Source of the DNA: a bacterium
GTDB taxonomy: Bacteria; Hinthialibacterota; Hinthialibacteria; Hinthialibacterales; Hinthialibacteraceae
Reading direction: 5' to 3'
Length of the DNA: 64,000 nt
NCBI GenBank assembly: GCA_963662285.2
Contig: CAXXMV010000002.1
Coordinates: 544,001-608,000 of the forward strand
Shown: piece after piece, positions 3,507 through 59,184 of the stretch
Position numbering within the stretch: the first letter of the stretch is position 1
Layout of the letters: every line of letters begins with the position of its first letter
Made by a program: the position numbers and the translations under genes
Notes under the pieces: generated by a model
What the model was told of the DNA's origin: nothing
Database searches by the model: none
What the model saw: the letters and a program-made list of their open reading frames with translations, nothing else

Positions 3507-3689
3507 ATTTCTGGCGCCAGTTTATAATACGCTTTATTTAGAGAAACGCTCGAAAACCAAAAGTCAATTAACACAGCCTAGGAGTATAGAAAAAAGCAGC
3601 ACGCTAAGCAATAAACATGCCAATAAAACAGCATTCCGAATTTCCCCTAAAAAAAATTCCTTTTTGCTCTATCTTTTTATTGGATCATT

Positions 3690-3865: not shown

Positions 3866-4993
3866 ATGAAAGGAGTAATTTTTGTGTTTACAAAAACTAA
3901 ACGAGTTCGTTATATTCGCGATCTACAACTAATTCCACAACTATCATCCGAGGAAAGGGAGAAGTTAAAAGCAGTCTCGAAGAAATATGCTTTTCGCGCT
4001 AATGATTACTACCTTGGCCTGATTGACTGGTCCGATAAGAATGATCCGATTCGTCATTTGATTATCCCTCATGAAACTGAAATGACTGACTGGGGTCATC
4101 TTGACGCCAGCAACGAGGCGGCATATACCAAAGCGCGCGGCGTTCAGCATAAATATAAAGATACTGTAATTTTGCTTTGCAACGAAGTTTGTGGATCATA
4201 TTGTAGATATTGTTTCCGTAAAAGACTTTTTATGAATGAAAATCATGAAGTTACAATCAATATTAATGAAGGCTTGAAATATATAACTGAAAATCCTGGA
4301 GTTACGAATGTTCTTTTAACTGGGGGCGATCCTCTGCTGCTATCCACTAACCGCCTCACTATGATATTGGATGAGTTGCGTAGAATCCCTCATGTTCAGA
4401 TTATCCGTATAGGAACCAAAATGCCCGCCTTTGATCCCTGGCGCATTCTGGATGATGAAGAATTATTGGATACCTTCGAGCGGGTTAGCCGTTCAGATAA
4501 ACGGTTATATTTGATGATGCACTTTGATCATCCCCGTGAACTGACCGAGCCGGCTATCGCCGGGATCGACCGCCTCATCAAAAAAGGCGTTATATGCTGC
4601 AACCAATGCCCCATCATAAAAGGAGTAAATGACAACTCCGACACGCTGACTGAACTGTTCCGCTTGCTTTCTTACGCCGGTTGCCCGCCATATTACATAT
4701 TCCAGGGACGACCAACCAAAGGCAATGAACCCTATGAAGTACCCATTGCCCGTGGATACCAGTTGATTCAAAACGCAATCAAACGATCTTCCGGCCTGGC
4801 CGCTCGGGGACGCTTCGTCATGTCTCATGCATCCGGGAAAATTGAAATATCCGGACTCGATGAAAAATACATCTATTTGAAATATCTTCGCGCTCATCAC
4901 CCGGTGAATATCGGCAAAACCATGCGCTTCCATCGCGATGACTCAGCCTATTGGCTGGATCAACTAAAACCCGCCGACGTGAATGATGGCTGA
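3866..4993 (+). CDS. KamA-family radical SAM protein (lysine 2,3-aminomutase-like)
   Basis: HKYKD, CGSYCRYCFRKR, LLTGGDPL, IRIGT, HFDHPREL, KGVND and PYY motifs. Confidence 0.9.
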   Translation: MKGVIFVFTKTKRVRYIRDLQLIPQLSSEEREKLKAVSKKYAFRANDYYLGLIDWSDKNDPIRHLIIPHETEMTDWGHLDASNEAAYTKARGVQHKYKDTVILLCNEVCGSYCRYCFRKRLFMNENHEVTININEGLKYITENPGVTNVLLTGGDPLLLSTNRLTMILDELRRIPHVQIIRIGTKMPAFDPWRILDDEELLDTFERVSRSDKRLYLMMHFDHPRELTEPAIAGIDRLIKKGVICCNQCPIIKGVNDNSDTLTELFRLLSYAGCPPYYIFQGRPTKGNEPYEVPIARGYQLIQNAIKRSSGLAARGRFVMSHASGKIEISGLDEKYIYLKYLRAHHPVNIGKTMRFHRDDSAYWLDQLKPADVNDG

Positions 4994-5031: not shown

Positions 5032-5069
5032 AAAAAGCCGCGTTGTTTGAAAAAACAACGCGGCTTTTT
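5032..5069. terminator. Bidirectional intrinsic terminator
   Basis: aaaaagccgcgttgttt / aaacaacgcggcttttt perfect inverted repeat between convergent genes. Confidence 0.85.
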
Positions 5070-5365: not shown

Positions 5366-5773
5366 CTATAACAGGAGAAAAGAAGCTGTTTCGAGGATAT
5401 CGTTTTTACGGAAAGGTTTAGATAGATAATAACGAATCCCGGCTTCAAGACTTTTCTTCCGGGATTCTTCATTGGGGTAAGCGGTGATCAGAATGATTTT
5501 GGAGGTTGGTTTTTGCGTTCTGATTCGTATGGCGAATTCTACGCCATCCAGTTTGGGCATATTCTTATCGACGATCATCAAATCAAAATCCTGCGAGAGA
5601 GCGCAGCCCATAGCGGTGATTGGATCGCATATACGCGTAACTTTGCATCCCTGTAAAGAAAAAACTTCATCCAAGGCTTCTGCGTAATCATCATCATCAT
5701 CGACTATCAAAATTTTTTTACCAGTCAGAAGTTCACGCATTATCCGATTATTGTTTTCCTGAGGTTTAGACAT
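5366..5773 (-). CDS. Single-domain response regulator (receiver)
   Basis: ILIVDDD, DLMIVDKNMPKLDG, IILITA and YLSKPF motifs. Confidence 0.92.
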   Translation of the reverse strand: MSKPQENNNRIMRELLTGKKILIVDDDDDYAEALDEVFSLQGCKVTRICDPITAMGCALSQDFDLMIVDKNMPKLDGVEFAIRIRTQKPTSKIILITAYPNEESRKKSLEAGIRYYLSKPFRKNDILETASFLLL

Positions 5774-5798: not shown

Positions 5799-5815
5799 AG
5801 CATCTTATGTGCCAA
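5799..5815 (-). promoter_or_regulatory. Sigma54 (-24/-12) promoter for the receiver gene
   Basis: Minus strand TTGGCACATAAGATGCT gives GG-N10-GC, ~26 nt before the ATG at 5773. Confidence 0.65.
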
Positions 5816-5855: not shown

Positions 5856-7253
5856 CTACTCTTCACGTTGGTTTAATTTTGGCAGCCTTCGGTACAGGGA
5901 ACTTCTCGAAAGACCTAAAATTCTCGCGGTTTCTTCCTTATTGCCTCCTGTGGATTTTAAGGTCTTGCGGATAATCTCAAGTTCCGCGTCTTCCAGAGTG
6001 GAGCCTAATGGAATCAATATGTTATTCGATAGATAGGATGTGTTTTCGGAGTCTTGAGTAATGCTTTCCGCTGGTTTATCCAAGATTTCTTCAGGGAGGT
6101 CTTTGATCTCAACCCGCGAATTGGTAGCAAAAATAGCAGCGTGTTCCACTGAATGTTGTAATTCGCGTACATTACCCGGCCAGGAATGCAATAAAAATTG
6201 TCTAATTACCGCTGGATCAAAATCTTTAAGCTCTTTGCCAGTCTCTTCACTGTATCGTTTTAGGAATGCCTGCGCCAAAATTGGGATATCATCTTTTCTT
6301 TCATATAGCGGAGGTATATGGATTTGGATTACTCTTAACCGGTAATAAAGGTCTTCGCGAAATTTCTTTTCAGCAATGCTGGCTTGCAGGTTCTTATTTG
6401 TAGCGGCAATCACGCGAACATCTACGTGAATAGTGGTGCTGCTTCCAACTTTTTCCAATTCAGAATCCTGCAGGATGCGAAGCAGGCGCTGTTGAGCGCT
6501 GGCGGACATTTCGCCAATCTCATTGAGAAAGATTGTTCCGCCGTCAGCCAGTTCGAAGCGACCCTTGCGGTCTTTGATGGCGCCAGTGAACGAACCCTTT
6601 ACATGCCCGAATAACTCAGATTCGAGCAGAGATTCTGGAAGGGAAGCGCAATCCACCTTGATCATCGGTTTGTTATTACGGCGGCTTTGTTCGTGAATCT
6701 CTTGAGCTACCTGATCTTTGCCGGTGCCGGTCTCGCCAGTTATTAAGACTGTGCTTCTGGTTGGCGCAACTTGCTCAATAATATGTAATATCCGCTTCAT
6801 GCCCTGGGATTTACCAAGCAATCGACCTGAATGGCGGGCTGCTTGCCTGCGCCATTCGTCTCTTTCTTCTATCAGTTGTTTCTGTTCTATGGCCCGTTCG
6901 ACGACTAATCGTAGTTCTTTGAATAATGAGCGCGAGCCTTTAATCAGATAATCCATGGCGCCCAGGCGCATGGCTTCAACAGCAGTATCCACATCTCCGA
7001 CGCCAGTTACCATCACAACCTGGATTTCCTGTTTCATCTCTTTTATATGGCGCAGTACATCAAGACCGTCAGCGCCGGGCAGCATGATGTCACAGATAAC
7101 CACATCAATGTCGTGCATGTGGATCAGTTCGATGGCTTTCTCGCCAGTTACGGCTTCGAGAAAGCACCTTTCATTTCCTTCGAGCGTTTCGCGGAGGCTC
7201 TCGCGGAAATCGGCGTCATCTTCTATTATTAATATGGTTCGTTGTATGGCCAC
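5856..7253 (-). CDS. NtrC-family sigma54-dependent response regulator (REC-AAA+-HTH)
   Basis: Receiver domain; Walker A GETGTGKD; [15 protein letters not shown]; FREDLYYRL; WPGNVREL; C-terminal Fis-type HTH ([16 protein letters not shown]). Confidence 0.95.
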
Positions 7254-8443
7254 TAGTCTAAATTATCCTCTATTGGTATTAAGATATGGATGGAGGTTCC
7301 TTTACCTGATTCAGATTCAATCGATATAGTACCCTTATGATTCTCAACAATCTCACATGCAAGATAAAGACCCAGTCCTGTACCAATACTTTTAGTGGTG
7401 GTGAATGGATCAAAAACGGTCTCTTTAATTTCGTCTGGCATGCCTGGGCCATTGTCAATAATGCAAAATTCAATGTAGTCATCCATGCGTTGAGCGGTTA
7501 ATTCAATTTCGCCATATTCTATTGGAGAGAACTGGATTGCTTCGTAGGAGTTTTTTACCAGATTGGCGAATACTCGATGAAATTGTTGTGGATCAAAATA
7601 TGCAGAGCCAATATCGTCATTAATGGATGCTTTGACCGAGAATCTATCAGAATGATACTGTTCTTTGAGTTCCAAGACCAAATCATCCAAAAATTGTTTA
7701 ATATCTATATCCTGTTGCTCCATCGTTCTACTTTTTGATAAATGGAGATAATTGTTGGCGATTTCTTCTAATCTCGATATCTGGCGTTGAATATCGGATG
7801 AACATTTATCAAGTGATTGGCGATGACGGTCAGGGTCGCCTTTACCCCATTCTTCAAATGTCATGTCCAGGCGTTCAAGCAGCAGGTCTGATTTCAAAAA
7901 AAGCACTCCCAGAGGAGTACGAATCTCATGCGCCACCTTGGCTGCAACTCGAGCCATGGCGTTATTTCGTTCTAATTTTTCAACTTTTTTGATTAATTGT
8001 TTGTGTTCGCTTTTAAGTTGTTTTCTCTCTTTTTGCAGTTTTTGATTTTCTGATATATCTTTAAAGATAACCAGGAAGGCCACTGTTTCACCCGATGAGT
8101 TTTTTAAGGGTATCCTGGTAAGTTGTACATTTACGTGTTGTCCATCACGATTAAGGCGAACGGTGTCTATATGTACTACTCCCACATCGCCCTTAACCTG
8201 GTTTCGCATAGCTTGACGGACTTCGTTTCTCAATTCGGGAGGAATGACTATATCTACTGATTTGCCGATAATTTCCTCACGTCTATATCCAAGCAGACGT
8301 TCGGCTCCCTTGGTCCATGAAATGACTTGCCCGTCGACATCCATCTGAATTATGCCATCGGTTGATCCTTCCACAATAGCCGAAAGAATAGCATCTTCGG
8401 AAATGCAGGCTTTAACCTCATTGTTACTCATTTGTTCATCCAT
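7253..8443 (-). CDS. Cytoplasmic PAS-domain histidine kinase
   Basis: PAS (SWTKGAERLLGY..EIIG), H-box AHEIRTPL, N-box NLVKNS, DNGPGM, FDPFTTTK, GTGLGL; stop overlaps the next gene's start. Confidence 0.93.
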   Translation of the reverse strand: MDEQMSNNEVKACISEDAILSAIVEGSTDGIIQMDVDGQVISWTKGAERLLGYRREEIIGKSVDIVIPPELRNEVRQAMRNQVKGDVGVVHIDTVRLNRDGQHVNVQLTRIPLKNSSGETVAFLVIFKDISENQKLQKERKQLKSEHKQLIKKVEKLERNNAMARVAAKVAHEIRTPLGVLFLKSDLLLERLDMTFEEWGKGDPDRHRQSLDKCSSDIQRQISRLEEIANNYLHLSKSRTMEQQDIDIKQFLDDLVLELKEQYHSDRFSVKASINDDIGSAYFDPQQFHRVFANLVKNSYEAIQFSPIEYGEIELTAQRMDDYIEFCIIDNGPGMPDEIKETVFDPFTTTKSIGTGLGLYLACEIVENHKGTISIESESGKGTSIHILIPIEDNLD

Positions 8444-8811
8444 AATTTATACAACGTTGACTCTTTATTAACGTAATTATTTATAAAATTATACGCTTCT
8501 CTATGCAAAGTATATTAAACTAATAACTATTACTAAATGACTAATAGAGCAATTGTCAATCCAAAGTATTTAAGCGGTTGTTAAAGTTGCCAATTCAAGG
8601 AACTTAAAATAAGTTTTATATTTTATTAAAAAATATATTTTCAGTGACTATACGAAGATAACTTAATATTTTATTGCTTTATATATTAAAATATTAACTA
8701 ACGCCCAATAATACTTATTTGATTTAACTCCTTTTTTTATGTATATGTCATTAACTTATTATTGTCATAACAAAAAATGAACATTTGTTATGTATCAATA
8801 TTAACACTAAT

Positions 8812-8848
8812 TCCCAAAATCGGGACGGCTCTAGTGTCATTAATGAGA
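8812..8848 (+). promoter_or_regulatory. Putative tandem enhancer (UAS) sites for a sigma54 activator
   Basis: Two related 14-bp imperfect palindromes, tcccaaaatcggga (8812-8825) and tgtcattaatgaga (8835-8848), 23 bp apart in an AT-rich intergenic region. Confidence 0.45.
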
Positions 8849-9001
8849 ATATAGGTGTTGTAATATTATTTTTCATCCAAAATCAAAAAATAGAATATTC
8901 TTATTGAAGATAATTATCTTGTTTACTTAAATCACATATAATCAGATACTAACAAGATTACGCGGAAACATGTGAGTATTTTATTGAGTTTTGTCTATGG
9001 A

Positions 9002-9018
9002 TTGGCATGATTACTGCG
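9002..9018 (+). promoter_or_regulatory. Sigma54 (-24/-12) promoter
   Basis: TTGGCATGATTACTGCG gives GG-N10-GC; predicted +1 near 9029. Confidence 0.6.
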
Positions 9019-9028
9019 ATATTAAATA

Positions 9029-9101
9029 AGTATAATAAACATCCCATTCTCCCCATTTCGCTGCCTGCCATCCTCCCCAAATTATGGCAGGCACTTTTTT
9101 T
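9029..9101 (+). ncRNA. Putative sigma54-dependent small regulatory RNA (~73 nt)
   Basis: Lies between a sigma54 motif and a terminator whose U-tract is on the + strand; no + strand ORF; C-rich single-stranded motifs (UCUCCCC, CCUCCCC). Confidence 0.5.
9062..9101 (+). terminator. Intrinsic terminator (+ strand)
   Basis: tgcctgccat-cctccccaaatt-atggcaggca followed by cttttttt. Confidence 0.8.
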
Positions 9102-9103
9102 GC

Positions 9104-11974
9104 CTATTCATATAGTGAGATGACATCTAACCATTCTAATTTTCTTGATTCCCAACCAGGTATTTTATAACCAGCGTCTGTTTGAATAATAGATGTCGTT
9201 TTGGTTAAAGATTTATTATTATCAAAATGTAGATCAAAGACTTTAACATAGGCTAATGGGTTTTTTGTATTTTCGACGATGCCTACACACACTTCCTGTG
9301 CGGGATCAAGGTCGAAATTACCACAGAACAGCCGTATGGAATGAAGGGGGGGCTTTTGGGGATTATGTTCACTTAAACTAATACTGCATAGAAGCGATGG
9401 TTCAGTCATAACCGGGGAATCATTATTGAATTTCCATATATATATAATGTCAGGGATAGCATCTGTATTATCAGCAGGATTCATGGCAGCAGTCAGTAGT
9501 TCGGGGATTCCATCTCCATCAATATCGCCGGTAGTTTGAATTACTCCACTCACATGGTTTATCTCAGATTTACTAAAGGCAGGAAACATAAGAGGCGAAT
9601 TTTGAATATCATGTAATCCATTTTCGGCGATTTCATTAAAAGCAACGATTTGCATGGTTATATTATTGGCGCTATTGGTTGGACCCAGTACTAATTCGTC
9701 TATTCCATCACCATTGAAATCCCCGGAACTCAAAGTTACTCCGCCGCCCTTGTTATCTTTTCTCTTGGCTTCATCGAAAGCGATAAATTGACTAACAACC
9801 CTAAATCCATGCGGCGGTTCTTTCCCGGTATATTCGAATAGCCGAATTATCTGGTTCCCTCCTCTACCCTGGGCGCAGGCTATCTGGCTGGAATCACGAC
9901 CGGGAATAAAGCGGCCTACAGCTGTAAAAACTTCACCTGAGGTATTCCGGATAGGCCGTTTGTCGTAGCGGGGGAAAGGCGAAAAGGGATGCCCGACCAT
10001 AGATTTCATGGAATTATTCCATGCTATTACTAATCCCGGATGACTAGGTTTTAAGGAATCCGTCGGACCTAATGTGAAAACCAGATCATCTTGGTCATCT
10101 CCATCGACGTCGCCCTTGGATAGATGCAGCCCACGACGTGGATCAATGCTTCCATCCTTTTGCAACCCTTCCGGAACGGCGATATGAATATCTCCCGGAT
10201 AATCTAACGCCTTTTTGAGTTGAATCCTTTCTATAAAGCCATCACCGCCGCTCCCTTGGGCAATAACAATATCTTCGATTGGTTTTGACGCCGGGATTAA
10301 TTTGCCTTGGTCATAGGATAGTAGAAGAACCGGCCATGGGATTGGTGATATTTCTATCCTGGCTTTGCGTAACGGAAAATCCGTTGGATCATTAAGTAAC
10401 TGTATGCCTGGATGCGCTGTTGGAAAGGGAAATCTGAACAATCCTCCCTCAACGCTATGCTCTATTATGTTGCCATCCCAAATAGTTTTGGTTCGGCTGT
10501 ACTCTAATGGTGGATTCACGTCTAAATGCAGAATCGGCGTCATCAAGCGAAAGCGTTTTCCCTGGGCTATTTTTTTGTTATTGAAATATCTTTCAAAACC
10601 TGTGTTGATAATATATTTTCCCTCATATAGGTTTGGAATTGAGATTATGCAGAAACTCTCATCCAAGGGACGTTCCTGATCGAGTTTTTCGATCTGTTCA
10701 ATGATCGATCTCGATTCGGCGCCTGCTATACGCCATTGTGAAACGTATTTCCAATTCAGTGGGATCGCGGCGGCCAACCATACCGCCAATATTCCCCATA
10801 TTGCGTAGGATATAAATTTATGAATCCTTGCAGCACGATAAAGAACATCCGCCATAATCAGCGCAACGCCTATTGATGGAATATAGATATACCGCTCAGA
10901 TAGGGTGGTGTACATTTCGGTTAGTTGAGTTAAAACAGGAACGGCGCTTATAAACCAGATGCTTAATCCCAAACTCCACAAAAGCCGACCTTTATATATG
11001 GAAAATAGCAATCCCACAGATGCCAACGCAATAAATGACCAGCCGTACATACCCGGAGAGAGAATAAATCGTTCTGCCAGACGATGAAATATGGATTCGA
11101 ATGGTAAAACCAGAACAGTGGAAAGTTTGCAAATCGATAAAAGATATATTTTGGTTGTTGTAAACGGAGTTATATACGATGATTTCCCAAATATATATCC
11201 ACTTAACGCCCATGTCCGTAAAATTCCGAAAATGATAATAAATAGCGCCCAATGGAATCCGGCGGCTTTGAGGTAAGAATAGATGCGGGGCCTTTTGGAA
11301 CTGGTTAAACGCTCGCGGCGATACCGGGTGATTTCGTAAATTATTAATATTACCGGTAGAGAGATTGCCATCTCTTTTGATAAAAGAGCCAGCGCGAATG
11401 AAACCAAAGATCCGATTAACGCTAAACGGTTTCCATTCCGTCTCCAGGCTACATAGGTTGCCAGCGAGCCTAAATAGAAGAGTGCGCAAAGGCTGTCAGT
11501 GCGACCATTGATCATACAGACCGATTCTGTGTGCCGTGGATGCATGGCGAATATGAATCCAGCAGCCCATATAAGACAAAAACTCTTTTTTATTCCTGAT
11601 TCGGATAACAATAATCCTGTAAGTACTACGATAAGGAGAGAATTAACGATATGAATGATCAGTAAATCAAGATGATAACCCCATGCGTTGTCTCCCCATA
11701 AAACATATTGTTCGATATAAGTCATCAGGATTTGCATGGGGCGGTAAAAACGAGCGCCGATAAATGCCGGATCACGCCAGAACCAATCGCTGGTGAATGA
11801 TTCTGTAACTTTTGAGAATGTGTCGCTGGCGTCGAGGAAGTAATAATCATCCCCTATAAAACCTACGCACAACGAGCCAGTGAATAGGAAGAAAACCATG
11901 CCGGTCAGCATGATTGAAGCGAGAAAATGAAATCCCCAAATTTTTATAAAGGAGTCGCCAGTATTATTATTCAT
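9104..11974 (-). CDS. GT-C (TMTC/ArnT-like) multi-pass membrane glycosyltransferase fused to C-terminal FG-GAP repeats
   Basis: GDDY, FYRP, HPRHTESV, LSKEMA and ERYIYIPS motifs with many TM segments; C-terminal GDVDGDDQDDL, GDFNGDGIDEL and GDIDGDGIPEL. Confidence 0.75.
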   Translation of the reverse strand: MNNNTGDSFIKIWGFHFLASIMLTGMVFFLFTGSLCVGFIGDDYYFLDASDTFSKVTESFTSDWFWRDPAFIGARFYRPMQILMTYIEQYVLWGDNAWGYHLDLLIIHIVNSLLIVVLTGLLLSESGIKKSFCLIWAAGFIFAMHPRHTESVCMINGRTDSLCALFYLGSLATYVAWRRNGNRLALIGSLVSFALALLSKEMAISLPVILIIYEITRYRRERLTSSKRPRIYSYLKAAGFHWALFIIIFGILRTWALSGYIFGKSSYITPFTTTKIYLLSICKLSTVLVLPFESIFHRLAERFILSPGMYGWSFIALASVGLLFSIYKGRLLWSLGLSIWFISAVPVLTQLTEMYTTLSERYIYIPSIGVALIMADVLYRAARIHKFISYAIWGILAVWLAAAIPLNWKYVSQWRIAGAESRSIIEQIEKLDQERPLDESFCIISIPNLYEGKYIINTGFERYFNNKKIAQGKRFRLMTPILHLDVNPPLEYSRTKTIWDGNIIEHSVEGGLFRFPFPTAHPGIQLLNDPTDFPLRKARIEISPIPWPVLLLSYDQGKLIPASKPIEDIVIAQGSGGDGFIERIQLKKALDYPGDIHIAVPEGLQKDGSIDPRRGLHLSKGDVDGDDQDDLVFTLGPTDSLKPSHPGLVIAWNNSMKSMVGHPFSPFPRYDKRPIRNTSGEVFTAVGRFIPGRDSSQIACAQGRGGNQIIRLFEYTGKEPPHGFRVVSQFIAFDEAKRKDNKGGGVTLSSGDFNGDGIDELVLGPTNSANNITMQIVAFNEIAENGLHDIQNSPLMFPAFSKSEINHVSGVIQTTGDIDGDGIPELLTAAMNPADNTDAIPDIIYIWKFNNDSPVMTEPSLLCSISLSEHNPQKPPLHSIRLFCGNFDLDPAQEVCVGIVENTKNPLAYVKVFDLHFDNNKSLTKTTSIIQTDAGYKIPGWESRKLEWLDVISLYE

Positions 11975-12173: not shown

Positions 12174-12249
12174 TGGGGCGTGGTCGAATTGGCAAGACGT
12201 CTGACTCTGGATCAGAAGGCTGGAGGTTCGAACCCTCCCGCCCCAGCCA
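12174..12249 (+). tRNA. tRNA-Gln(CTG)
   Basis: Acceptor stem tggggcg/cgcccca; anticodon arm tctga-ctCTGga-tcaga; T-loop GGTTCGAA; encoded CCA. Confidence 0.95.
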
Positions 12250-38392: not shown

Positions 38393-41300
38393 TTAGAAGA
38401 GTTCCCACCCGGCAACATCGGTGAAGATATCCAACGTTTGCAATGTAAAGTAATCATATTCTGCTACATTAACATTCTCGCCGCCCCAGTTTTTGGCGAA
38501 GATTCCAACGCGGGTTGCCTGGCGATTCTCCTGAATTGGAGCGCCAACCAACTGCCACGATGAATCCGGCAACTGCGCGCTGAAGATCAATTCTCCATCG
38601 CGTCTGGTTACCGCAATCTTGGCCGTGATCTTATCCTGTAACATGAGTTCATCAATCCAATCATAATCATTCACGAATTCATGATAATCGAGGATGCCAA
38701 TCACGCTTTGACCTGTCAGTTCAACGCGTAAATCAGCTGCATAGAATCCAAAGAGATACTCGTCTCCACTCACGTCCGCATCATCGCCCTGGTTGTAGGT
38801 GACAGCCAGACCTACATGATATTGATCCCAGGTGATGGTATCTTTCAGCGTAACGTTGGTCTCAATGCGCCAGTCACCTTCTGGTATATCAGTTCGCAGA
38901 ATCATGGGAGCGCGGCGCCCGTCAGTCCATTCATTGAATTTTTCGGGAGTGGAAATTGTATCAACTTCAAACGATAATAATCCGTCAGCCGTAGAAATTA
39001 TGACGCCGTCTTCATAATCCGCGCTTAAGGCCGGATCGCTGCCATATTCCACAAACCACGGATCAGCCAGATCGCTATCGAAATCGTCTTTCTTCTCATC
39101 TGTCGGGGCGCCAAACAACCAGACTTCATTGGTCACGCTGACGTCTCCGTTAATCGGACGGGCGAGAGGAAGACCAATATCACAAAGCCCGTCAAAGATC
39201 AGGAATCTTGTCCCTTCGGATGAAGCGAGCGTGTAAGAAATTGTCTGTGATCCGGTAATCGGCGCCAAATCCCAAATGATTTTACTTCCTATTTGCTGAC
39301 CGCCATCGCTGATATCCTGAACTTGCGCTCCGGGAGGGATAGATTCTTCAATAAAGGCTTCATACGAGCCATAGACCGATTCGGAATTAAGAGAAACCAT
39401 TAATGGTTGGCTGGCATCAAAGAATCCATCTTGCGTGAGTTGGCGAGTCACCTTCCCTACCCCTTTGACCCGGACGATTTCCAACCGTTGAAAACCAGTG
39501 GGATCATGGTGATCGGCGGGCAACGTGGGGAACGCCGCTACAATGGAATGCACTCCTCCACTGACCGGGAAGGGGCCGACGCTGAACATCTTAAATACAT
39601 CAAAACCTTGAGTATCCGGGACTCTGATTTCGCCTTTGAATTTATTATCAACATAAACATCTATCAGGGCGTCGCCGGTGTGTCCCCATCCGTTATTGAT
39701 GGATAAATTCAAATACAACACTTGATCTCCCTCGCCTAGATCGAAAGTGTATCGCCACCAATCTCCCCCGGTGATGCCTTGTCCGATACTGTAAAGGTCG
39801 CCGCGTTTTTCAAGGCCGACTTCATCGTCATCCCGGAAACCATCCAGATCATAACTGTCGCCTCGCGTTCCGGTTGGATTGGATTGGTGAAAATCAGCGC
39901 CGGTAGGAAATTCAAAGGTTAGATCTATTTGAGGAGTTGAGCCATCGCCGGATGGACGTTCATACGCTACAGCGCTGGCAATTCCATCCATTCCCTCTGT
40001 GTATCGCTCATCCAATTCATAGCCGGTGGGATAATTTTTACCATCAACCGGGCTTCCGCTGAAATCGTAATCAACGGCTTCTCTATACAGATAGGGCAAC
40101 AAAATAGAGATAGCAGTCTCACCCGTTATACGTTCTTCTCCATCTCCCTGGTCAAAACTCCCCGAAAAACCTGCTATCCGGTTTAGCAGAAGCCGTGGAG
40201 GAGTAATGGTGTATGACAGAGTTGTCGATTCACTCAGATTCTTGAGCGACCAATAGATATTGCCTCCAGATACGACGCCGTTATTGGATATGTTGGAAAC
40301 TGTCCAATTATTGGGCAAACCTTCAATAATTTCCAGAGAAGGTATGCTGCCATTTATTTTGACGGGAAGACTAATGGTCAGCGGAGTGTCCGCTTCGAAA
40401 TGCATGGCGCTCATCTCGCGGCTTATGGTCGCCCTATTCGCCGCAACTCCACGTACTTCCAAATTGTCTATGTATATCAAACCAGCGGGAGCAGAATCCA
40501 GGTTGTAACCCAATTGGATGTACCGGGGGCCATCGCCAAACGGTGGAAAATCACGATCATCAATCAGTATCCAGCCGCCTTCGCCCTGATCCTTGTACAT
40601 CAAAAGTACATGGTCGCCGCTGACTTCCGCCCGGAGGCGGTGTGGATTAGCGCCTAGAGGAAGGGTTATGTCACACTCTCCTTCACTGGGGAGTGAATTG
40701 GAACCATCAAAATAGTGCGTGGTCTGACGCAAGAAATAATTGTGACGGTCAAATATCCCATTCCCTCCCGCGACATCCGGACCAACCAAAGGCCAGAAAG
40801 AGAATCGTCCTACTATTTCATTATGGTAAAAGAAATCGAATTCGACTGAATACTCTTGCGGCAGTTCTTTGTCGAGGCGCAGCCAGTGATTTGAGCCGCC
40901 CGTCCATTCTATTCGCCCATTGACGGCTTCTACCGGCCCATCGGTCGACATATCTACCAACTCAGGCCAGGCCGTAGTGGGATCAGGTGCGCTTGGATCA
41001 TTAAAATTGTTGCTATAATTGAAGAGATTCTCATCCTTGTAACTGACGACAAAATTATCGATATAAATCAGCCCGGCGGGAGCGGAATCCAGATTGTAAC
41101 CTAATTGGATATACCGGGGTCCATCGCCAAATGGTGGGAAATCACGCTCATCGATTAGAATCCAACCGCCTTCGCCTCGATCCTTATACATTAAAAGGAC
41201 ATGGTCGCCGCGTACTTCCGCCCGCAGGCGGTGTGGATTGGCTTCCAGAGGAAGGGTTAAGTCACACTCTCCTTCGCTGGGTACAGTATTGGTTCCATTA

Positions 41301-41692
41301 AAATAGTGAGTGGTTTGACGTAAGAAATAATTGTGACGGTTATGGATGCCTCCCCCTCCCGATATATCCGGGCCGACCAAAGGCCAGAAAGAGAATCGCC
41401 CTACTATTGCATCATGATAAAAGAAATCAAATTCGACCGTGTATTCCTGCGGCAGTTGCTTATCGAGACGCAACCAGTGATTTCCAGTACCGGTCCATTC
41501 TATTCTGCCGTTGACGGCTTCAACCGGGCCTTCAGTAGACATATCGATCCATTCCGGCCATGCTTCGGCTGGATTAGAACTGGAAGGATTCTCAAAATCG
41601 TTTTGATATTGCACGCCTGAATAGGCATGCGATGCAATTAACAAAATAGCGGATATTGCAATAATCGATTGTACCATCTTCATTCTTTTCAT
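38393..41692 (-). CDS. Large secreted multidomain lectin/CBM-like protein (paralog A, ~1100 aa)
   Basis: Signal peptide; two tandem ~200-aa jelly-roll-like repeats; Ig-like segments; CBM-like GDWWRYTFD..GGVHSIV; ends TDVAGWELF; RBS GGAGG. Confidence 0.75.
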   Translation of the reverse strand: MKRMKMVQSIIAISAILLIASHAYSGVQYQNDFENPSSSNPAEAWPEWIDMSTEGPVEAVNGRIEWTGTGNHWLRLDKQLPQEYTVEFDFFYHDAIVGRFSFWPLVGPDISGGGGIHNRHNYFLRQTTHYFNGTNTVPSEGECDLTLPLEANPHRLRAEVRGDHVLLMYKDRGEGGWILIDERDFPPFGDGPRYIQLGYNLDSAPAGLIYIDNFVVSYKDENLFNYSNNFNDPSAPDPTTAWPELVDMSTDGPVEAVNGRIEWTGGSNHWLRLDKELPQEYSVEFDFFYHNEIVGRFSFWPLVGPDVAGGNGIFDRHNYFLRQTTHYFDGSNSLPSEGECDITLPLGANPHRLRAEVSGDHVLLMYKDQGEGGWILIDDRDFPPFGDGPRYIQLGYNLDSAPAGLIYIDNLEVRGVAANRATISREMSAMHFEADTPLTISLPVKINGSIPSLEIIEGLPNNWTVSNISNNGVVSGGNIYWSLKNLSESTTLSYTITPPRLLLNRIAGFSGSFDQGDGEERITGETAISILLPYLYREAVDYDFSGSPVDGKNYPTGYELDERYTEGMDGIASAVAYERPSGDGSTPQIDLTFEFPTGADFHQSNPTGTRGDSYDLDGFRDDDEVGLEKRGDLYSIGQGITGGDWWRYTFDLGEGDQVLYLNLSINNGWGHTGDALIDVYVDNKFKGEIRVPDTQGFDVFKMFSVGPFPVSGGVHSIVAAFPTLPADHHDPTGFQRLEIVRVKGVGKVTRQLTQDGFFDASQPLMVSLNSESVYGSYEAFIEESIPPGAQVQDISDGGQQIGSKIIWDLAPITGSQTISYTLASSEGTRFLIFDGLCDIGLPLARPINGDVSVTNEVWLFGAPTDEKKDDFDSDLADPWFVEYGSDPALSADYEDGVIISTADGLLSFEVDTISTPEKFNEWTDGRRAPMILRTDIPEGDWRIETNVTLKDTITWDQYHVGLAVTYNQGDDADVSGDEYLFGFYAADLRVELTGQSVIGILDYHEFVNDYDWIDELMLQDKITAKIAVTRRDGELIFSAQLPDSSWQLVGAPIQENRQATRVGIFAKNWGGENVNVAEYDYFTLQTLDIFTDVAGWELF

Positions 41693-41803
41693 TGCTATTA
41701 CCTCCATTTTTGAAGAAAAATCAGAACATTATTACGCCTACTACTCTATGCATTCATAACACAAAAATAATTCAATTGATAGACTGCTCCCTAATTAATC
41801 AAC

Positions 41804-41843
41804 AAAAAGGGCGGCGAAAAGAAATATACTCTTTCCGCCGCCC
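41804..41843 (-). terminator. Intrinsic terminator of paralog B
   Basis: Near-identical to the 38328-38367 hairpin. Confidence 0.8.
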
Positions 41844-43685
41844 ATAATAGTTGTTATTAACTATTCAAATTAGAAGAGTTCCCACCCGGCAACATCGGTG
41901 AAGATATCCAATGTTTGAATGGTAAAGTAATCATATTCTGCAATATTGAAATTCTCAGCGCCCCAGTTTTTGGCGAAGATTCCAATGCGGGTTGCCTGAC
42001 GATTCTCCACAATTGGAGCGCCAACCAACTGCCACGATGAACCTGGCAACTGAGCGCTGAAGATCAACTCTCCATCGCGTCTGGTTACAGCAATCTTGGC
42101 CGTGATTACACCCTGTAACAAGAGTTCATCGATCCAATCAAACTCATTAGTAAATTCATGATAATCAAGGACGCCCAACGCGCCCTTATTGGTTAACTCA
42201 ACGCGTAAATCTGACGCATAGAATCCGAGGAGATACTCATCTCCAGTTACATTGGCATCATCACCTTGATTGTACGATACGACCAAACCAACGTGATATT
42301 CAATCCAGGAAAGAGCATCCATCAAAGTCAATTCAGTCTCTATACGCCAATCACCCTCAGGAATATCCGTACGCAGGATCATGGGGGCGCGGCGTCCATT
42401 GCTCCATTCATTGAACTTTTCAGGAGTGGAAACCGTATCAATCTCAACAGACAATTTTCCATCAGCTGTCGAAATCATAACGCCGTCTTCATAATCTGCG
42501 CTTAAGGCCGGATCGCTGCCATATTCAACAAACCAGGGATCAGCCAGATCGCTATCGAAATCGTCTTTCTTCTCATCTGTCGGGGCGCCAAACAACCAGA
42601 CTTCATTGGTCACGCTGCCATCGCCATGCACTGTATCCGCCAAAGGCAATCCAGTATCGCATAAACCGTTGAACATTAGGTATTTCAGTCCTTCAGGCGT
42701 ACCTAAGGTATACTGAACTGTTTGGGAATTGGTTGTTGGATCAACTTTGAATAACAGGTGGTTGCCAACTAACTCTCCGCCGCCCAGATCAGTAACTTCA
42801 ACGCCAGCAGGAATAACTTCATCAATAAAGGCGGTATAAGAACCATAAAGGGCTTCTGCGGATAACGAAACGGTTAAATCATCACCAGCGTTAAAGAATC
42901 CATCCGCTGTTAATGAACGCTCGACGCGGCCAATTCCTTTTACCCGAACCACTTCCATGCGACCAATATCTTCAACTACATTCGCCCCTGGCATGGCCAG
43001 AACTATCGAATGCACGCCGCCGCTCACTTCAAATGGTCCAACAGTATAGAAATAATACGCATTAAAGTCCGTACCAGCCGCTTCGAAGACGCCCTTGAAT
43101 TTATTGTCGACATATAGATCGACTTCACAATCGCCATTACCCCAAGTATTGATGCTCAAATTCAGGAGAAGAACCTGATCGCCTTCACCCAAATCAAAAG
43201 TATATCGTAACCAGTCACCTGGAGTGACTTTATCACCGCCGATTCCAGCGCCAGTGTCACTGGCCCCTTTCTCGAAGGTCATTTCATCCATATCGCGGTA
43301 ATCACCTAAACTATAGTTCTCATCATCTTTTGGAACTCCAGGATTCGCAAAGTGGAAATCCGCACCAGCTGGAAAGACGAATTCTGCATCAAAAGCAGGA
43401 GCTTCACCGCCTCCGGGACGTTCATAAACTGTGTCTGAAGGGATTCCATCCATGCCTTGGGTATATCGCTCTCCTAAAGCAAACTCTGTCGGATAATTCT
43501 TGCCATCCACCGGGCTGCCGCTGAAGTCATAATCGATGCATTCACGATATAGATATGGCAACAAAATAGCTATCGCTGTATCGCCGGCAATACGCTCTTC
43601 GCCGCCGCCGGAGTCAACGCTGCCTGAAAAACCTGCAACGCGCTTAAGAATCAAGCGGGGTGGTATCGCGTCATAGGTCAACGTT

Positions 43686-46014
43686 CAGACCTCCTGAGCT
43701 CACCCGTGGTTTGCGGTTCTCGCGGGATTTTGTTAGGATACTGGAGGGAAGGCCAATCCTGCAGAGTATGAGGGAGTTAAAAAAATGCCGCAGACCTTAT
43801 TACCTCTATTCGCATCAGGCGAAGGATTCATATCCGAGTTGATTTCCTATCAAAAAAAAGATGGATCGGTGTACTACTTTCATGCCGGATTACCGGTTTT
43901 CAGTCATGGGGAAACCGACCTTAAAAGTTTTCGCATGTTCACCAGCCAGTTGGCGGTCAGTGGAGTCTGCCGCCAAGTTGACATCGTTAGAGCCTTTGGC
44001 ATCAGCGCCATCAGTATGAAGCGATGGGTCAAGAAATACCGCGAGGAAGGCCCGGAAGCATTCTTCAAAACTCCGCGCCGACGCAGCGAACATGTCCTGA
44101 CGCCGGAGGTGTTGCAAAAAACCCAAGACCTCTTATCGCAGGGCGTGAGCCGTTCCGAAGCAGCGAAGCAAATGAATCTAAAATCGAATACCTTGTCGAA
44201 GGCGATCTGCGCAGGCCGCTTGACCGAACCGGTAAAAAAAAAGACCTGAACGGCAGCAACAAAAGCCAGCGCAGCGCGGCGGATCATGCCGCTCCCATGG
44301 GGATGGGATGTACGCGGGTCGTGGAGCGGGTCTGCGCGGCGACGGGGCAACTCAGCGAAGCGCCCACCCGTTTCGAGACCTCGCTGGACGTCTGCAATGG
44401 CGGCGTGCTTTGGGCGCTGCCGGCGTTATCGGCCAATGGATTGTTGACCAAAACAGAAGCCTTGTTCTCCCTGCCCAAAGGTTATTATTCCTGCATTCAT
44501 ATTTTCCTGCTGTTAGCTTTCATGGCCTTGATCCGGATCAAGACCAACGAACAGTTGCGCTATTTTCCGGCGGGAGAAGGGGGCAAATGGCTGGGATTGG
44601 ATCGAATCCCCGAAGTGCGGACCTTGCGGGAAAAGATCAAAATCCTGGCGGCGCCCGAATCGGTCGCGCAATGGAGCCGCATCTTGTCACGGCATTGGAT
44701 GGATAACAATCCAGAGGCGGCGGGAGTTCTGTATATCGATGGACACGTACGCGTCTATCACGGCTCGCAAACTCCGCTCCCCAAACGGTACGTGGCGCGC
44801 GACCGCTTGTGCATGCGGGGCACGACCGACTATTGGGTAAACGATCAGCAGGGCGATCCGTTCTTCGTGGTGAGCACGCCGTTCACCGCGGGATTGCTGG
44901 ATATGTTGAAACGCGAGATCGCGCCGCAACTGCTGCAGGATGTTCCCAACCAGCCCAGCCCGCAACAACTCGAAGCGAATCCTTATTGCCATCGGTTTGT
45001 CATGATCTTTGACCGTGAGGGATACAGCCCAACCTTCTTCGCGGAGATGCGGACGCTCCGCATCGCCTGCCAAACCTACAACAAGTATCCCAAAGAAGAT
45101 TGGCCGGAAGCGGAATTCACCGAGGTCAATGTGGAGATGCCCGGCGGCCATTCATCACGCATGAAATTGGCTGAACGAGGGGTGTTCCTGGGCCGGGTTT
45201 TGTGGGTGAGGGAAATCCGGAAACTCACAGAAAGCGGTCACCAAACCTCGGTGATCAGTACGGATTACACCTCTGATTTCACCCGTATTGCGGCGCATAT
45301 GTTCTCGCGATGGTCACAGGAAAACTTTTTCCGTTATATGATGCAACACTATGGAATTGATCGGCTTATCGACTACGATCTCGTCAAGCCGGATGATACC
45401 GTGAAAGTGGTCAATCCCGCCTATCGTTCTTTGGAAGGCCGGATAAAAAAACAAGCGGGACGATTGGGAAGAAAGAAGGCGGAGTTTGGAACTTTGGCGC
45501 TGACGGAATCCCAGGTGGAGGAGAAAGATATCTTATCCTTTGAACAAAAAAAGGGGGAAATCAAAGAAGATATCGAGCAGTTGGAGCATGAACTGGCCGG
45601 GATGAAGGAGGAACGTAAAACGGTTGACAAGCACTTGCCGCTTAATCAACTGCCGGAGCCGGAACGGTTTTTGCAACTCGCTCCGACGCGCAAACAATTT
45701 CTCGATGCGATTAAAATGATCGCCTATCGGGCGGAGACGGCCATGGCGATGATTGTGCGAACAAAATTGGCCCGAAGCGACGATGCCCGCTCATTGATCC
45801 GGGAAATATTTGCGACGGAAGCGGATCTCATTCCGGATGAGGAAAACAAAACCTTAACGGTGCAGTTGCACCATTTGACCAACCACCTATCGGATCAAGC
45901 CGCCCGCAACTTAGCAGCGAATCTCAACGCCACAGAAACCATCTACCCCGGCACGGAATTGCGACTAATCTACAAACTGGTATCGGATGAAATTCCACCA
46001 GATCAGGAGGTCTG
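43686..46014 (+). mobile_element. Insertion sequence, ~2.33 kb, DDE-type
   Basis: Terminal inverted repeats CAGACCTCCTGA / TCAGGAGGTCTG; flanking direct repeat ACGTT (or a 13-bp TIR with a CGT duplication); visibly higher GC than the flanks. Confidence 0.92.
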
Positions 46015-46015
46015 A
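43785..46015 (+). CDS. Transposase expressed as an orfA (HTH, 43785-44249)/orfB fusion via -1 frameshift (~743 aa)
   Basis: In-frame A AAA AAG in an A9 run at 44234-44242; orfB is in the -1 frame; candidate catalytic motifs YIDGH, FDREG and RWSQENFF. Confidence 0.8.
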
Positions 46016-47609
46016 CGTTACGGTTTCAGATTGATTGGTAAACGACCAGATAACATTGCCATTACTCACAACGCCGCCATTAGAAATATTGGCTACGCTC
46101 CAACCTTCGGGGATGCCTTCTATGATTGTCAGAGAAGGAATATTGCCTGTTACCGTCATCTGAAGAGTGATTGGAACAGCGGTATCAGGTTCAAAGATTG
46201 CAGCGCCAATAGCGCGTTCAACAATTGCTCTGTTATCAGAAAGACCCGTCACCTCAAAATTATCAATATAATGAGCTGATGAAGCGCCGCTATCGAGATT
46301 GTTGCCTAGTTGAACATACCTGGGGCCATCACCGAAGGGAACATCAATATCACGTTCGTCGACTTTGATCCATCCGCCTTCTCCTCGATCCTTATAAAGG
46401 AAGACCACATGGTCGCCAGTCACTTCAAAACGCAATCTGTGTGGTGGAGATCCGATAGGCAGATTGGCATTAAATGGACCTTCGCTGGGAATGGTATCCG
46501 AGAGATTGTAATAATGTGAGTTTTCACGAAGGAAATAGTTACGGCGTTCGATGCTTTCTCCAGGTTTAACTAAAGGCCAGACGGAAAACCGGCTGTTGAC
46601 ATTTTCAGGATGGAAGAAATCGAACTCCATGACAAAGTTCATGGGAAGTTCTTTATCCAACCGAATCCACTGGTTGCCGCCATTAACCCATTCGATGTGA
46701 CCATTAACCGCCTGAGCAGTAACTCCACCAAATTCAACCCATTCCGGCCATGCTTCCCAGGGTACAGTGCTGCTGGGATTATCGAAATTATTGCTGTAAT
46801 GAAAGAGGTTTTCTTCCAGATAACTCACAACGATATTATCTACATAGTGTGTTCCGATATTGCCTCCATCATCGTTGTAACCCAACTGGATATAACGGTT
46901 TTCTCCGTCAAACGCAGGAAAATCACGCTCATCGATCAGAATCCAGCCGCCTTCACCTTGATCCTTGTACAGGAAAACCACATGGTCGCCAGTCACTTCA
47001 AAACGCAAACGATGTGGATTTGATCCTATAGGAAGAGTAAGGTCTCTCGGTCCCTCACTTGGTATCGTATCCGCCAAATTATAGTAATGAGTATTGGCGC
47101 GCATAAAATAATTATGCCGATCAGCGATGCTTTCATTTTCATCGCATAATGGCCAAAATGAAAAACGCCCATTTACATCCTCTTGATAGAAGAAATCCAA
47201 CTCGACGGTATATTCTTGAGGCAGGGGCATATCCAACCGGATCCAGTCGTTGTTATCCCCACTGCCATACCATTCCAACCGGCCATTGATCGCATGGCAA
47301 TCAGTATCTGCAGCGAATTTTATCCATTCAGGATAAGCTTCCTGAACATCTTCGCTGCTCGGATTCTCGAAGTCATTGCTGTATTGAACCGCGGCTTCAG
47401 TTGAAACAACCGAAAAGGCCCAAATAGCAAGACATGCTAACAAATACACCGAAATTCTTTTACTACGCATAATCTACCTCCCATTTAATTAAATAAATCA
47501 ATCAATATGTAATACACCCTAATACAGCTTGGTATCATATAAAATTAAATAACTCCGTGTCAACTATCAACTCATAAATAACCTTAACAAATCACCCAAA
47601 ACTATTTAC

Positions 47610-54233: not shown

Positions 54234-55025
54234 TTACCAGGATTGATTAGGCGATAGATAGAAAGTTCCATCGATGGGTGGAGTTGTAGAACGAATTTCT
54301 TTTGATGATTTAACCGCAGAGGAAGCATTTGAATAATATAAAACGCGGAAAAATGTTTCTATGGGAGTCGCGAACAGGATATCATCCGGCGCGGCGAGTT
54401 GAATTTCAATATGAGAGGGTAAATCAGCGGGAACTTTCCTCATGCTGCTATCAATCGCGCTTTGAGCATACCACAATCTGGCGCGGGAATATTCGCGGGA
54501 ACCAATGCGAACCTCATTATTCATATCATCAATAGTTGCAATGATGGCCTGGCTGGCTGATAAGACAGACGCAGTAACGCAAGCAACCATTTCGTTTTTG
54601 TATGGAAGATACGCCGCCTCGGTAAGAGGCGTCAGACCTCCGAGACCGCTTACTTCATTGGCGATTCCCGTAATCCCATGACCTGCGCTGTATAGCGAGT
54701 AGGTCTTATAGGCTTGCGCCGTCACTCCACCGATCAAACCGGAAATCAATATATCATACTGTCCGGGGCTATCTCCACTGGTGGAATAGGAACCTGTAGC
54801 AACGCCAAGTTGCGCAATCGACATTGATCCTGAAGAGAGCGCTGCGCCAAACTGCATGACCGAGTAAGATAAATTTACCGGATTGGTTGGAGAGCCAGTA
54901 ACCGGATCAGAAGCAATAACCAGAAAAGGGATGTTCTCTCCAACTTCAAACATCCCTAAATAATTTTGAGAGAATGCAGGTAAAGAAAAAATCAGTACGT
55001 ATAATGATAATAAAAAGCGTTTCAT
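54234..55025 (-). CDS. Secreted protein with an Ig-like N-terminal region, inside the virion-like operon
   Basis: MKRFLLSLYVLIFSLPAFSQ Sec signal; Ig-like G.ATGSYST..PGQYDI; RBS AGGAGG. Confidence 0.75.
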   Translation of the reverse strand: MKRFLLSLYVLIFSLPAFSQNYLGMFEVGENIPFLVIASDPVTGSPTNPVNLSYSVMQFGAALSSGSMSIAQLGVATGSYSTSGDSPGQYDILISGLIGGVTAQAYKTYSLYSAGHGITGIANEVSGLGGLTPLTEAAYLPYKNEMVACVTASVLSASQAIIATIDDMNNEVRIGSREYSRARLWYAQSAIDSSMRKVPADLPSHIEIQLAAPDDILFATPIETFFRVLYYSNASSAVKSSKEIRSTTPPIDGTFYLSPNQSW

Positions 55026-55046
55026 GATAAAAACCTCCTGTTTTCT

Positions 55047-55301
55047 TTATACTTTGTCAGAGAAAAAAACGCGCAATACCACGGCGATAAGACTTCCGAC
55101 TAAGGCGCTGACGCATGCCGCCGTCGCTTTAACGCCAGCAAGATCCACCCGGCTGTTATCCACTTTGTTATAGAGATCGATATTCGATTGATGGATATCT
55201 CGAACTGAACATTCGATAGATTCCAATCTTGTGCGAATATGCTCTAATGAAGTTTGTATCTCGACGTACTCTGTGGTGTACCTGGCATCTGATCCGTTCA
55301 T
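55047..55301 (-). CDS. Small coiled-coil protein with a C-terminal TM helix (XhlA/holin-like)
   Basis: Heptad LEHIRTRLESIE followed by hydrophobic ACVSALVGSLIAVVLRVFF; RBS GGAG. Confidence 0.6.
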   Translation of the reverse strand: MNGSDARYTTEYVEIQTSLEHIRTRLESIECSVRDIHQSNIDLYNKVDNSRVDLAGVKATAACVSALVGSLIAVVLRVFFSDKV

Positions 55302-55344
55302 GGCGTTCTCCATTTTTTCACTTTGTTATATAAATCACTCCAGA

Positions 55345-56196: not shown

Positions 56197-56231
56197 GTTG
56201 CACCTCATTGGATTGAAAAAAGATACTGTTT

Positions 56232-57029: not shown

Positions 57030-57030
57030 T

Positions 57031-58026: not shown

Positions 58027-58072
58027 AGCGCGCCTCCTGTTTTTTATTTGTTTTCAGATAGATTCAACTTAA

Positions 58073-58726: not shown

Positions 58727-59118
58727 TATTGATCTCCCTTCGTAACAACCACCGGCGTAGAAACGCTGACGCGAAGATAAGGACGCAACATGCACCAGGA
58801 TTCTTCCCACAAGACTTCTGATAATTTCATCAGATTATTCAAACGGCTTGATTCATTGACTTGCAAACCCGAAGTACGCCAGTCATTGGTCGAAACAGCA
58901 CAAGAAACCACTATTGAACGAAAGATATGAGAAACGGCTAAAAGCGATTCGGCGCTTATAATCTCATTCGTTATCCCGCTTTCATCAGTCAGCATCGTCC
59001 CGGCCAAGATGTCCTCATGCGCTTTTGAAAGATTGTCGAGTAAAAGTTCTGGTGTGATTTCATCGAAATTGCGCAGGTTTGCCGCCTTACGCACGTCACT
59101 TTCAGTTGCAAAACTCAT
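58726..59118 (-). CDS. Putative head-tail adaptor (helical, 130 aa)
   Basis: Immediately follows the capsid gene; MSFATESDVR start; helical pattern ending LRPY. Confidence 0.55.
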   Translation of the reverse strand: MSFATESDVRKAANLRNFDEITPELLLDNLSKAHEDILAGTMLTDESGITNEIISAESLLAVSHIFRSIVVSCAVSTNDWRTSGLQVNESSRLNNLMKLSEVLWEESWCMLRPYLRVSVSTPVVVTKGDQ

Positions 59119-59150
59119 AGTCCTACTCCATGTTTCTCTTGGAGAATTGC

Positions 59151-59184
59151 GGGGAGCAAGTCGCCCAACAACGACTCGCTCCCC
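59151..59184 (-). promoter_or_regulatory. Strong intergenic hairpin after the capsid gene (mRNA stabiliser or attenuator)
   Basis: ggggagcgagtcg-ttgttggg-cgacttgctcccc on the minus strand, no U tract. Confidence 0.6.

Follow-up and report, generated by a model that had tools for sequence, protein, structure and literature searches.

Organization of the locus

The window (the whole stretch of DNA analysed here, 64,000 nt) carries three signalling genes on its minus strand and, divergent from them, a predicted small RNA on its plus strand (Table 1). Pfam found no domain in the kinase beyond PAS, HisKA and HATPase, and the true start of the kinase is probably a few codons further in, giving a protein of 392 aa (P0001). 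The second gene encodes an enhancer-binding protein with a GAFTGA-type loop, a REC phospho-acceptor and a Fis-type HTH; as the likely activator of the RNA, it is called the activator below. The third gene, a single-domain response regulator, follows the activator in all 17 loci, i.e. the window and the 16 ortholog loci described below.

Table 1. Coordinates of the features at the small RNA locus (positions are those of the window)
Feature	Position	Strand	Basis
Single-domain (REC only) response regulator	5366-5773	-	Pfam
Second sigma54 promoter, before the response regulator	5800-5815	-	Present in 15/17 loci
Activator, REC-AAA+-HTH enhancer-binding protein with GSFTGA loop	5856-7253	-	Pfam, alignment
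Tandem copy of the activator site, inside the activator CDS	6251-6288 (6288-6271, 6268-6251)	-	Profile and recoding test
PAS-HisKA-HATPase sensor kinase, divergent from the RNA	7253-8443	-	Pfam, orthologs
Activator site 1, 18-bp imperfect palindrome around 8812-8825	8810-8827		Highest profile score anywhere in the 64 kb
Activator site 2, weaker, 23 bp past site 1, around 8835-8848	8833-8850		Position -170
AT-rich spacer, enhancer to promoter	8851-9001		Composition
sigma54 (-24/-12) promoter	9002-9017	+	TGGCA-N7-YGC upstream of the core in 14/14 copies
Predicted small RNA, ~73 nt (70-87 nt in relatives)	9029-9101	+	Fold and conservation
Single-stranded seed, 20 nt, with two UCCC motifs	9041-9060	+	0 mismatches in 14/14 copies
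Stem of the terminator, 10 bp; its C-rich loop at 9072-9083 contains the third UCCC	9062-9093	+	Covariation
U tract of the intrinsic terminator	9095-9101	+	U run after the stem in 14/14 copies

A preliminary description of the region had listed the parts of a sigma54-driven RNA, and all of them were found where it had placed them, to within 1 nt. The two palindromes lie at 8812-8825 (5 of 7 pairs) and 8835-8848 (6 of 7 pairs), with 23 bp between their starts. The spacer is AT-rich as claimed, with an intergenic GC content of 0.26 against 0.435 in the whole window. The sigma54 motif has its GG at 9004-9005 and its GC at 9016-9017, within 1 nt of the earlier reading. The roughly 33 nt said to precede the stem correspond to an unpaired arm of 33 nt (9029-9061). 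The stem does comprise 10 bp (9062-9071 with 9084-9093), its 12-nt loop opens with CCUCCCC, and the tail consists of seven U residues. The stop codon of the converging minus-strand gene is at 9104-9106, and the strand of that gene lacks a U tract past the hairpin, also as described. Only the remark that many ribosome-binding sites of the window are GGAGG was overstated. Among 47 heuristically picked start regions of the window, GGAGG was present in nine, GGAG in 19 and GGGGAG in none.

By themselves, the palindromes are unremarkable in such an AT-rich region, where many others occur; their support comes from conservation. The RNA, whose 5′ end was placed at 9029 from the usual spacing of sigma54 promoters, had a predicted fold with z = -4.7, and none of 200 shuffled sequences folded as well. 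The hairpin was missed by a terminator scan that is restricted to loops of 3-8 nt.

Several other features of the window were recorded. The three-gene cluster adjoins a KamA-family radical SAM gene (3866-4993, plus strand). A gene of this family lies by the cluster in five of the 17 loci, converging in the window and co-directional in L002, L003, L004 and L011. The kamA-like gene and the response-regulator gene converge on a perfect 17-bp inverted repeat (5032-5069), likely a bidirectional terminator. Farther away, Rfam identified a tRNA (12174-12246, plus strand) and a class A RNase P RNA (62828-63192, plus strand), the start of which is overlapped by the last ORF (61517-62905). By eye, two overlapping transposase-like ORFs (43785-46015, plus strand) interrupt repeated large surface-protein genes (38393-47470), and an ORF cluster at 54234-61283 (minus strand) resembles phage head genes (protease-like, capsid-like) and is possibly a prophage remnant.

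Conservation of the small RNA in related genomes

The preliminary description had named conservation in related genomes as a test of the RNA, and the RNA passed this test. From an alignment of 39 kinases we fetched 80 genome loci, and 16 of these were orthologs at 51-66% identity. About 45 close relatives of the kinase were found (49-100% identity, the window's own protein included), and the named ones were labelled Ca. Hinthialibacter, 'Ca. Omnitrophota' or bacterium. Isolate SURF_12, the source of one related locus, is placed in OLB16, which is Ca. Hinthialibacterota, in the available text of PMC9324843. The ortholog loci belong to Ca. Hinthialibacterota/OLB16-type bacteria, and judging by these homologs the window probably comes from the same phylum. 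Next in score after the orthologs came a second kinase type with a protoglobin domain (P0053, P0054, P0058, P0060, P0081 and similar); two of its rows are named Ca. Hinthialibacter, and it may feed a paralogous activator.

Promoter, seed, loop, stem and U tail were syntenic in 13 of the 16 ortholog loci, and in the same 13 loci the stretch 9041-9060 recurred without a mismatch, divergent from the kinase. Together with the window these loci gave 14 copies for analysis, which all share the order promoter, seed, stem, U tail. The three loci without the RNA are L005, with only 291 nt of upstream sequence, and L007 and L011, with 8 kb each. A model of the RNA, run with filters off, found nothing above 12.4 bits in any of them; L007 and L011 keep all three signalling genes yet lack the RNA. 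The 64 non-orthologous kinase loci did not contain a copy either: their best scores were 14 and 13 bits, against 82-96 bits in true copies. No paralog emerged with the model here: the window has a single copy, and these 64 loci have none.

We used the fourfold-degenerate sites of the activator gene as a yardstick for this conservation. Across the 14 genomes they had a mean identity of 34%, and none of 77 columns was invariant. By comparison, all 20 seed positions were invariant in the 14 copies. The genomes are not independent (L003 and L004 are close to each other, as are L013-L015), with a maximum pairwise fourfold identity of 54%. The stem was conserved as a structure: 94.1% of 135 cells were paired, versus 22-50% in slid controls. 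Three of the ten pairs had changed on both sides, and five never vary and hence are uninformative; the number of co-varying pairs was not above that of shuffles (110 of 500 equally high). The mean unpaired probability of the seed was 0.98 in the window and ranged from 0.65 to 0.99 across copies. The number of UCCC motifs was three in every copy: the unpaired arm holds two of them, and the terminator loop holds the third. GGA did not occur in any copy.

Rfam assigned the RNA to no family, either at the gathering threshold over the window or at E values up to 10 over 8444-9200, where the weak alignments with ErsA (E = 2.1) and ilvH (E = 8.5) were taken as chance. Collections of phages and plasmids gave no match beyond one 21-nt alignment at E = 0.9. 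On the comparison of these sequences, the element at 9002-9101 is a genuine conserved gene unit. We are highly confident that the RNA is real and driven by sigma54.

Independence from neighbouring genes

Could the hairpin simply terminate the converging gene, or belong to the leader of a downstream gene or to a small ORF, with a sigma54 motif present by chance? The converging gene of the window does end 3 nt past the U tract, and a converging neighbour was found in nine of the 13 copies that have a neighbour. However, the U tract faces the wrong way for such a gene. The genes beyond the terminator in the 13 copies belong to eight unrelated families, and four of them are co-directional with the RNA. 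Therefore, the element is not the leader or terminator of one particular gene. A small ORF was also rejected, since no frame of conserved length exists on either strand: the antisense frame varied from 5 to more than 70 codons across copies, and the sense strand has no common start. In addition, the promoter spacing and the upstream enhancer are conserved. We regard the absence of an RNA gene as most improbable.

On the other side, a pal gene (peptidoglycan-associated lipoprotein) is directly upstream of the kinase in eight of the 16 loci (L003:6581-7210, L004:7134-7760, L007:7325-7924, L008:7161-7745, L009:6965-7552, L013:7130-7768, L014:1180-1809 and L015:7146-7784) and is absent at that place in the window. 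In the seven pal loci that have the RNA, the RNA is found beyond pal, with its promoter and enhancer still attached. The presence of pal beside the kinase hints at a link to the cell envelope. In L007, which lacks the RNA, a sigma54-like motif faces away from pal at a comparable position (minus strand, ~6940-6956) and is followed by a different U-rich stretch. These may be a remnant or a replacement RNA.

Promoter and upstream activator sites

The strict sigma54 pattern occurred twice in the 64 kb, where 0.19 occurrences are expected, and none of 100 shuffles reached two. The distance from the motif of the RNA promoter to the core was 21-26 nt in 11 copies and 34-36 nt in three. The other strict match of the window (3608-3623, minus strand) is ~100 bp before a WD40-repeat ORF with a frameshifted-looking 5′ region; it may be a promoter or a chance match in a broken coding stretch.

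A de novo search of the 14 upstream regions, the window's included, recovered an 18-bp palindrome with a log-likelihood of 74.8, compared with 29-41 in eight shuffles. When each copy was held out, its best site fell between -203 and -160 in all 14 copies, whereas 2.2 are expected within -210 to -155; the leave-one-out procedure leaks mildly, as training sites were chosen with the full profile, and the interval -210 to -155 was picked afterwards. Site 1 of the window had a leave-one-out score of 17.1 at -193. Site 2 was outside the top three profile matches of the window's region and is supported by position, not by score: sites at -168 to -172 in L001, L002, L006, L010, L012 and L016 match it. 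The enhancer sites are often paired, 21-24 bp apart. Thus, the palindromes first noticed by eye turned out to be the cores of a position-conserved enhancer pair at 8810-8850. IHF-like sites were present in seven of the 14 copies, against a shuffled mean of 4.4, with 34 of 300 shuffles as high; they were not enriched. IHF may assist looping across the spacer.

The activator and its unusual ATPase residues

The recognition helix of the activator is invariant, and because of this the activator is the first candidate for the enhancer sites. Across the 17 loci there was little or no variation in the GAFTGA/GSFTGA loop, the first arginine finger, sensor II and the phospho-acceptor Asp. The ATPase site, at residues 180, 201 and 244, is non-canonical. 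In place of the canonical Walker B hhhhDE the window's activator reads FLNE, a position confirmed by alignment to a solved NtrC-family chain; its Walker A has GKD, and its switch Asn is replaced by Asp. Walker B had NE in 14 of the 17 loci, the window included, and DE in others such as L010 and L016. Among 49 ortholog rows, NE was found in 33 (DE in 14, two unparsed), GKD in 48 and the switch Asp in 47. None of 71 other enhancer-binding proteins had NE (DE in 67, four unparsed). On a quick tree of the activator, with the root not tested, NE needs two changes. The predicted structure of the activator had pLDDT values below 50 over most of the AAA+ domain and is therefore uninformative on the active site.

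These residues raise the question of whether another enhancer-binding protein activates the RNA, the NE-type protein being a weak or dead ATPase that occupies the same sites as a repressor or acts only as a partner subunit, roles it may indeed have. The Walker B Asp matters in PspF, where its change to Ala lowered ATPase activity from 39.5 to 0.23 per min (PMC3419264), and the GKD and switch Asp add to the skewed distribution of NE. These genomes also encode further activators of this kind, e.g. P0177. In the literature surveyed, including the available parts of PMC3419264, PMC8335546 and PMC7175178, we found no data on Asn at this position. Against this explanation, the conserved loop, arginine finger, sensor II and phospho-acceptor are as expected if contact with sigma54 is retained, and RNA, promoter and enhancer are alike in the DE loci (L010, L016) and the NE loci. 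Because the sigma54-contact loop is intact and the DE loci have the same RNA and enhancer, we think that the NE-type protein still activates. It seems very likely that the RNA is driven by the adjacent activator, and activation by a different protein seems quite unlikely.

The profile of the enhancer also matched inside the activator gene. The tandem pair there lies ~470 bp upstream of the sigma54 promoter of the response regulator. Its two sites ranked first and second of 1266 positions by mean profile score. None of 2000 synonymous recodings scored as high as they did, and the first of them also had the largest excess over the synonymous expectation. The rarest Ala codon, GCA, is kept there in 15 of the 17 activator genes. 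The pair was noticed only post hoc, in taxa that are related to each other. Comparison of the two site pairs suggests that one protein drives both the RNA promoter and the response-regulator promoter. The response regulator is probably co-induced with the RNA.

Proposed mechanism and target search

Our best model, which we consider probable on balance, is a two-component-activated, sigma54-dependent, trans-acting RNA that blocks ribosome-binding sites. As the domain architecture implies, the soluble PAS kinase would phosphorylate the adjoining REC-AAA+-HTH activator. The activator would then bind the tandem 18-bp palindromes 160-200 bp upstream and open the promoter at 9002-9017. Through the second site pair in its own gene it would also open the sigma54 promoter of the response regulator, which is likely a phosphate sink or a second output. 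Transcription would yield an RNA of ~73 nt ending at the intrinsic terminator. By analogy with known RNAs, the unpaired arm and the terminator loop could offer their three UCCC motifs for pairing with the G-rich ribosome-binding sites of mRNAs from other parts of the genome, which would block translation.

The sequence of the seed arm is exactly complementary to that of a Shine-Dalgarno (SD) motif followed by 6 nt of spacer and AUG. The one substitution opposite the G of AUG, C to U in L006, would leave a G-U pair in place, although this is a single observation. In a search of 208 start regions (window and 16 loci), the real seed had no advantage over shuffled ones, 6 of 30 of which scored as low. 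This null result is weak evidence, because the search covered only 64 kb and 16 short loci. At the start regions of the kinase, activator, response regulator, kamA-like and pal genes, seed pairing was only sporadic (a few of the starts were mis-picked), and feedback of the RNA on these neighbours was rejected as no pairing was conserved. The start region of pal is GGAGAA in five of eight loci, where seed pairing is possible but weak.

It is also possible that the mRNA regions with which the RNA pairs are G-rich leaders or coding sequences outside the ribosome-binding sites, and that the effect is translational activation or altered stability. The best SD partner, GGGGAG, is rare, being absent from the 47 start regions of the window and present in only five of all 208, and in the case of GlmZ, pairing ahead of the start activates glmS (PMC4152352). 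However, the CCUCC of the loop matches the common GGAGG, and the arm complements SD, spacer and AUG together. We consider pairing outside the ribosome-binding sites very unlikely.

Another explanation is that a real, sigma54-driven RNA serves as a decoy or sponge, with its repeated CCCAUU/UCCC units binding a protein or another small RNA. CrcZ is an RNA under sigma54 control beside two-component genes, and decoys of the CsrB/RsmZ and CrcZ types have repeated GGA loops or repeated A-rich motifs. Neither kind of repeat was found here: GGA is missing from all 14 copies, and an A-rich Hfq-type motif was present once, in one of the 14. There are precedents for a decoy in the available texts, GlmY being a sigma54 RNA beside two-component genes that titrates RapZ (PMC4152352) and CrcZ being a decoy of Hfq (PMC13501541). 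A generic anti-SD seed would not need to be perfectly conserved over 20 nt, as this one is, and no mRNA target signal appeared in our limited search of the window and 16 loci. On the other hand, the RNA is very short, and unpaired UCCC motifs are a documented signature of RNAs that pair with SD sequences (PMC4132741). Neither an Hfq nor a CsrA motif turned up in the sequence examined (window and loci), and the available portions of the supplements of PMC9324843 do not mention Hfq, CsrA or RpoN. We therefore regard a decoy as unlikely, and the preferred mode of action, pairing at ribosome-binding sites, as likely.

Significance

We searched the openly accessible literature on Hinthialibacter, on RNA in OLB16/Hinthialibacterota and on RNA motifs of candidate phyla, and found no such RNA there; it may have been predicted before in large automated catalogues of RNA motifs. 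If our interpretation is correct, it provides a regulatory RNA with its promoter, activator site and probable sensor for an uncultured phylum in which we found no described small RNA. It would also join sigma54/enhancer control, as in Qrr, GlmY and Pxr, with triple-UCCC seeds of the LhrC type, which are known from separate systems. Comparative target prediction could start from an ideal query, a 20-nt seed that does not vary among genomes saturated at synonymous sites, and such a prediction would show what the conserved two-component system of the phylum controls. With the natural Asn-for-Asp exchange in Walker B, it can be tested directly how much deviation sigma54 activators tolerate in their ATPase site.

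A wider reading joins these observations, and we hold it only as a doubtful possibility. In it, the locus would be a lineage-wide lifestyle switch of Ca. Hinthialibacterota that reached the logic of LuxO/Qrr independently. One kinase and one activator would drive both the anti-SD RNA, through the intergenic enhancer, and a phosphate-sink regulator, through the intragenic enhancer. The activator would be a functional ATPase whose Walker B Asp and switch Asn have been swapped, a natural alternative active site for sigma54 activators.

Comparison with known systems

The preliminary description called the layout LuxO/Qrr-like. This held for the arrangement of a sigma54 small RNA divergent from the locus of its activator, and did not hold for the family. 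In Vibrio, the sigma54 RNA gene qrr1 likewise lies upstream of luxO, the gene of an enhancer-binding response regulator, in the opposite orientation (PMC8043402), and has tandem activator sites upstream (PMC10162802), according to the available texts. However, no Rfam covariance model of Qrr matched, whether over the window at the gathering threshold or over 8444-9200 at E values up to 10. The activator scored 384.7 bits with the LuxO model NF041946, the cut-off of which is 800; the AtoC and NtrC models scored higher, also below their cut-offs. The LuxO site TTGCAWWWTGCAA, as given in the available part of PMC10162802, was found in none of the 14 copies with at most one mismatch and in one with two mismatches. 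Moreover, a PAS kinase lies between RNA and activator here, whereas Vibrio uses a LuxU phosphorelay (PMC10162802, PMC13501541, as far as available). In the loci compared here, one copy of the RNA was seen per locus.

The glmY-glrKR locus of Enterobacteriaceae is similar in that a sigma54 RNA adjoins the genes of a kinase and an activator, at least in the accessible part of PMC4152352. According to the same text, GlrR binds TGTC-N10-GACA more than 100 bp upstream, and a gene for an outer-membrane protein is in the cluster. The enhancer consensus here has the same outer bases, and pal joins the cluster in half of the 16 loci. The exact TGTC-N10-GACA site, however, occurred in only one of the 14 copies, and a site with one mismatch in six. 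The RNA had no match to the Rfam models of GlmY and GlmZ, and the activator scored 302.3 bits with NF011695, against a GlrR cut-off of 763. GlmY is a decoy of RapZ without a pairing role of its own, whereas the RNA here consists of one hairpin and an exposed arm rich in C. In Myxococcus, Pxr is likewise driven by a sigma54 promoter of its own next to the gene of a sigma54 response regulator, with variable genes on the far side (PMC5568312, available text). It differs in being downstream of nla19 and in forming three stem-loops, and our RNA has no Rfam match. ErsA of Pseudomonas (Pseudomon-1, RF01719) shares a terminator hairpin with a CCUCCCC loop in a weak alignment; identity with ErsA was rejected, as the score of 16 bits (E = 2.1) compares with a gathering score of 50 and reflects chance or convergence.

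In its seed, the RNA resembles the UCCC RNAs (LhrC, RsaE, RNAIII and FsrA; NfeR1/alpha-r14), in that it has conserved unpaired UCCC motifs, three in each of the 14 copies. The three UCCC motifs of Listeria LhrC bind the SD region (PMC4132741), and NfeR1 has three anti-SD loops (PMC10746234), in the parts of these papers available. There is no sequence homology to these RNAs by Rfam. LhrC is 111-114 nt long and multicopy, compared with ~73 nt here, and NfeR1 has a sigma70 promoter and three hairpins, compared with sigma54 and one hairpin.

Judged on sequence, the RNA is a member of none of the qrr1-luxO, glmY-glrKR, pxr-nla19 and LhrC families. It does have what marks the functional class of sigma54 small RNAs with an enhancer-binding protein, namely the promoter, the upstream sites, the terminator and the lack of a coding frame. 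Apparently, it represents a new, undescribed family of small RNAs with a defined promoter and enhancer, in which the regulatory logic is known and the parts are new.
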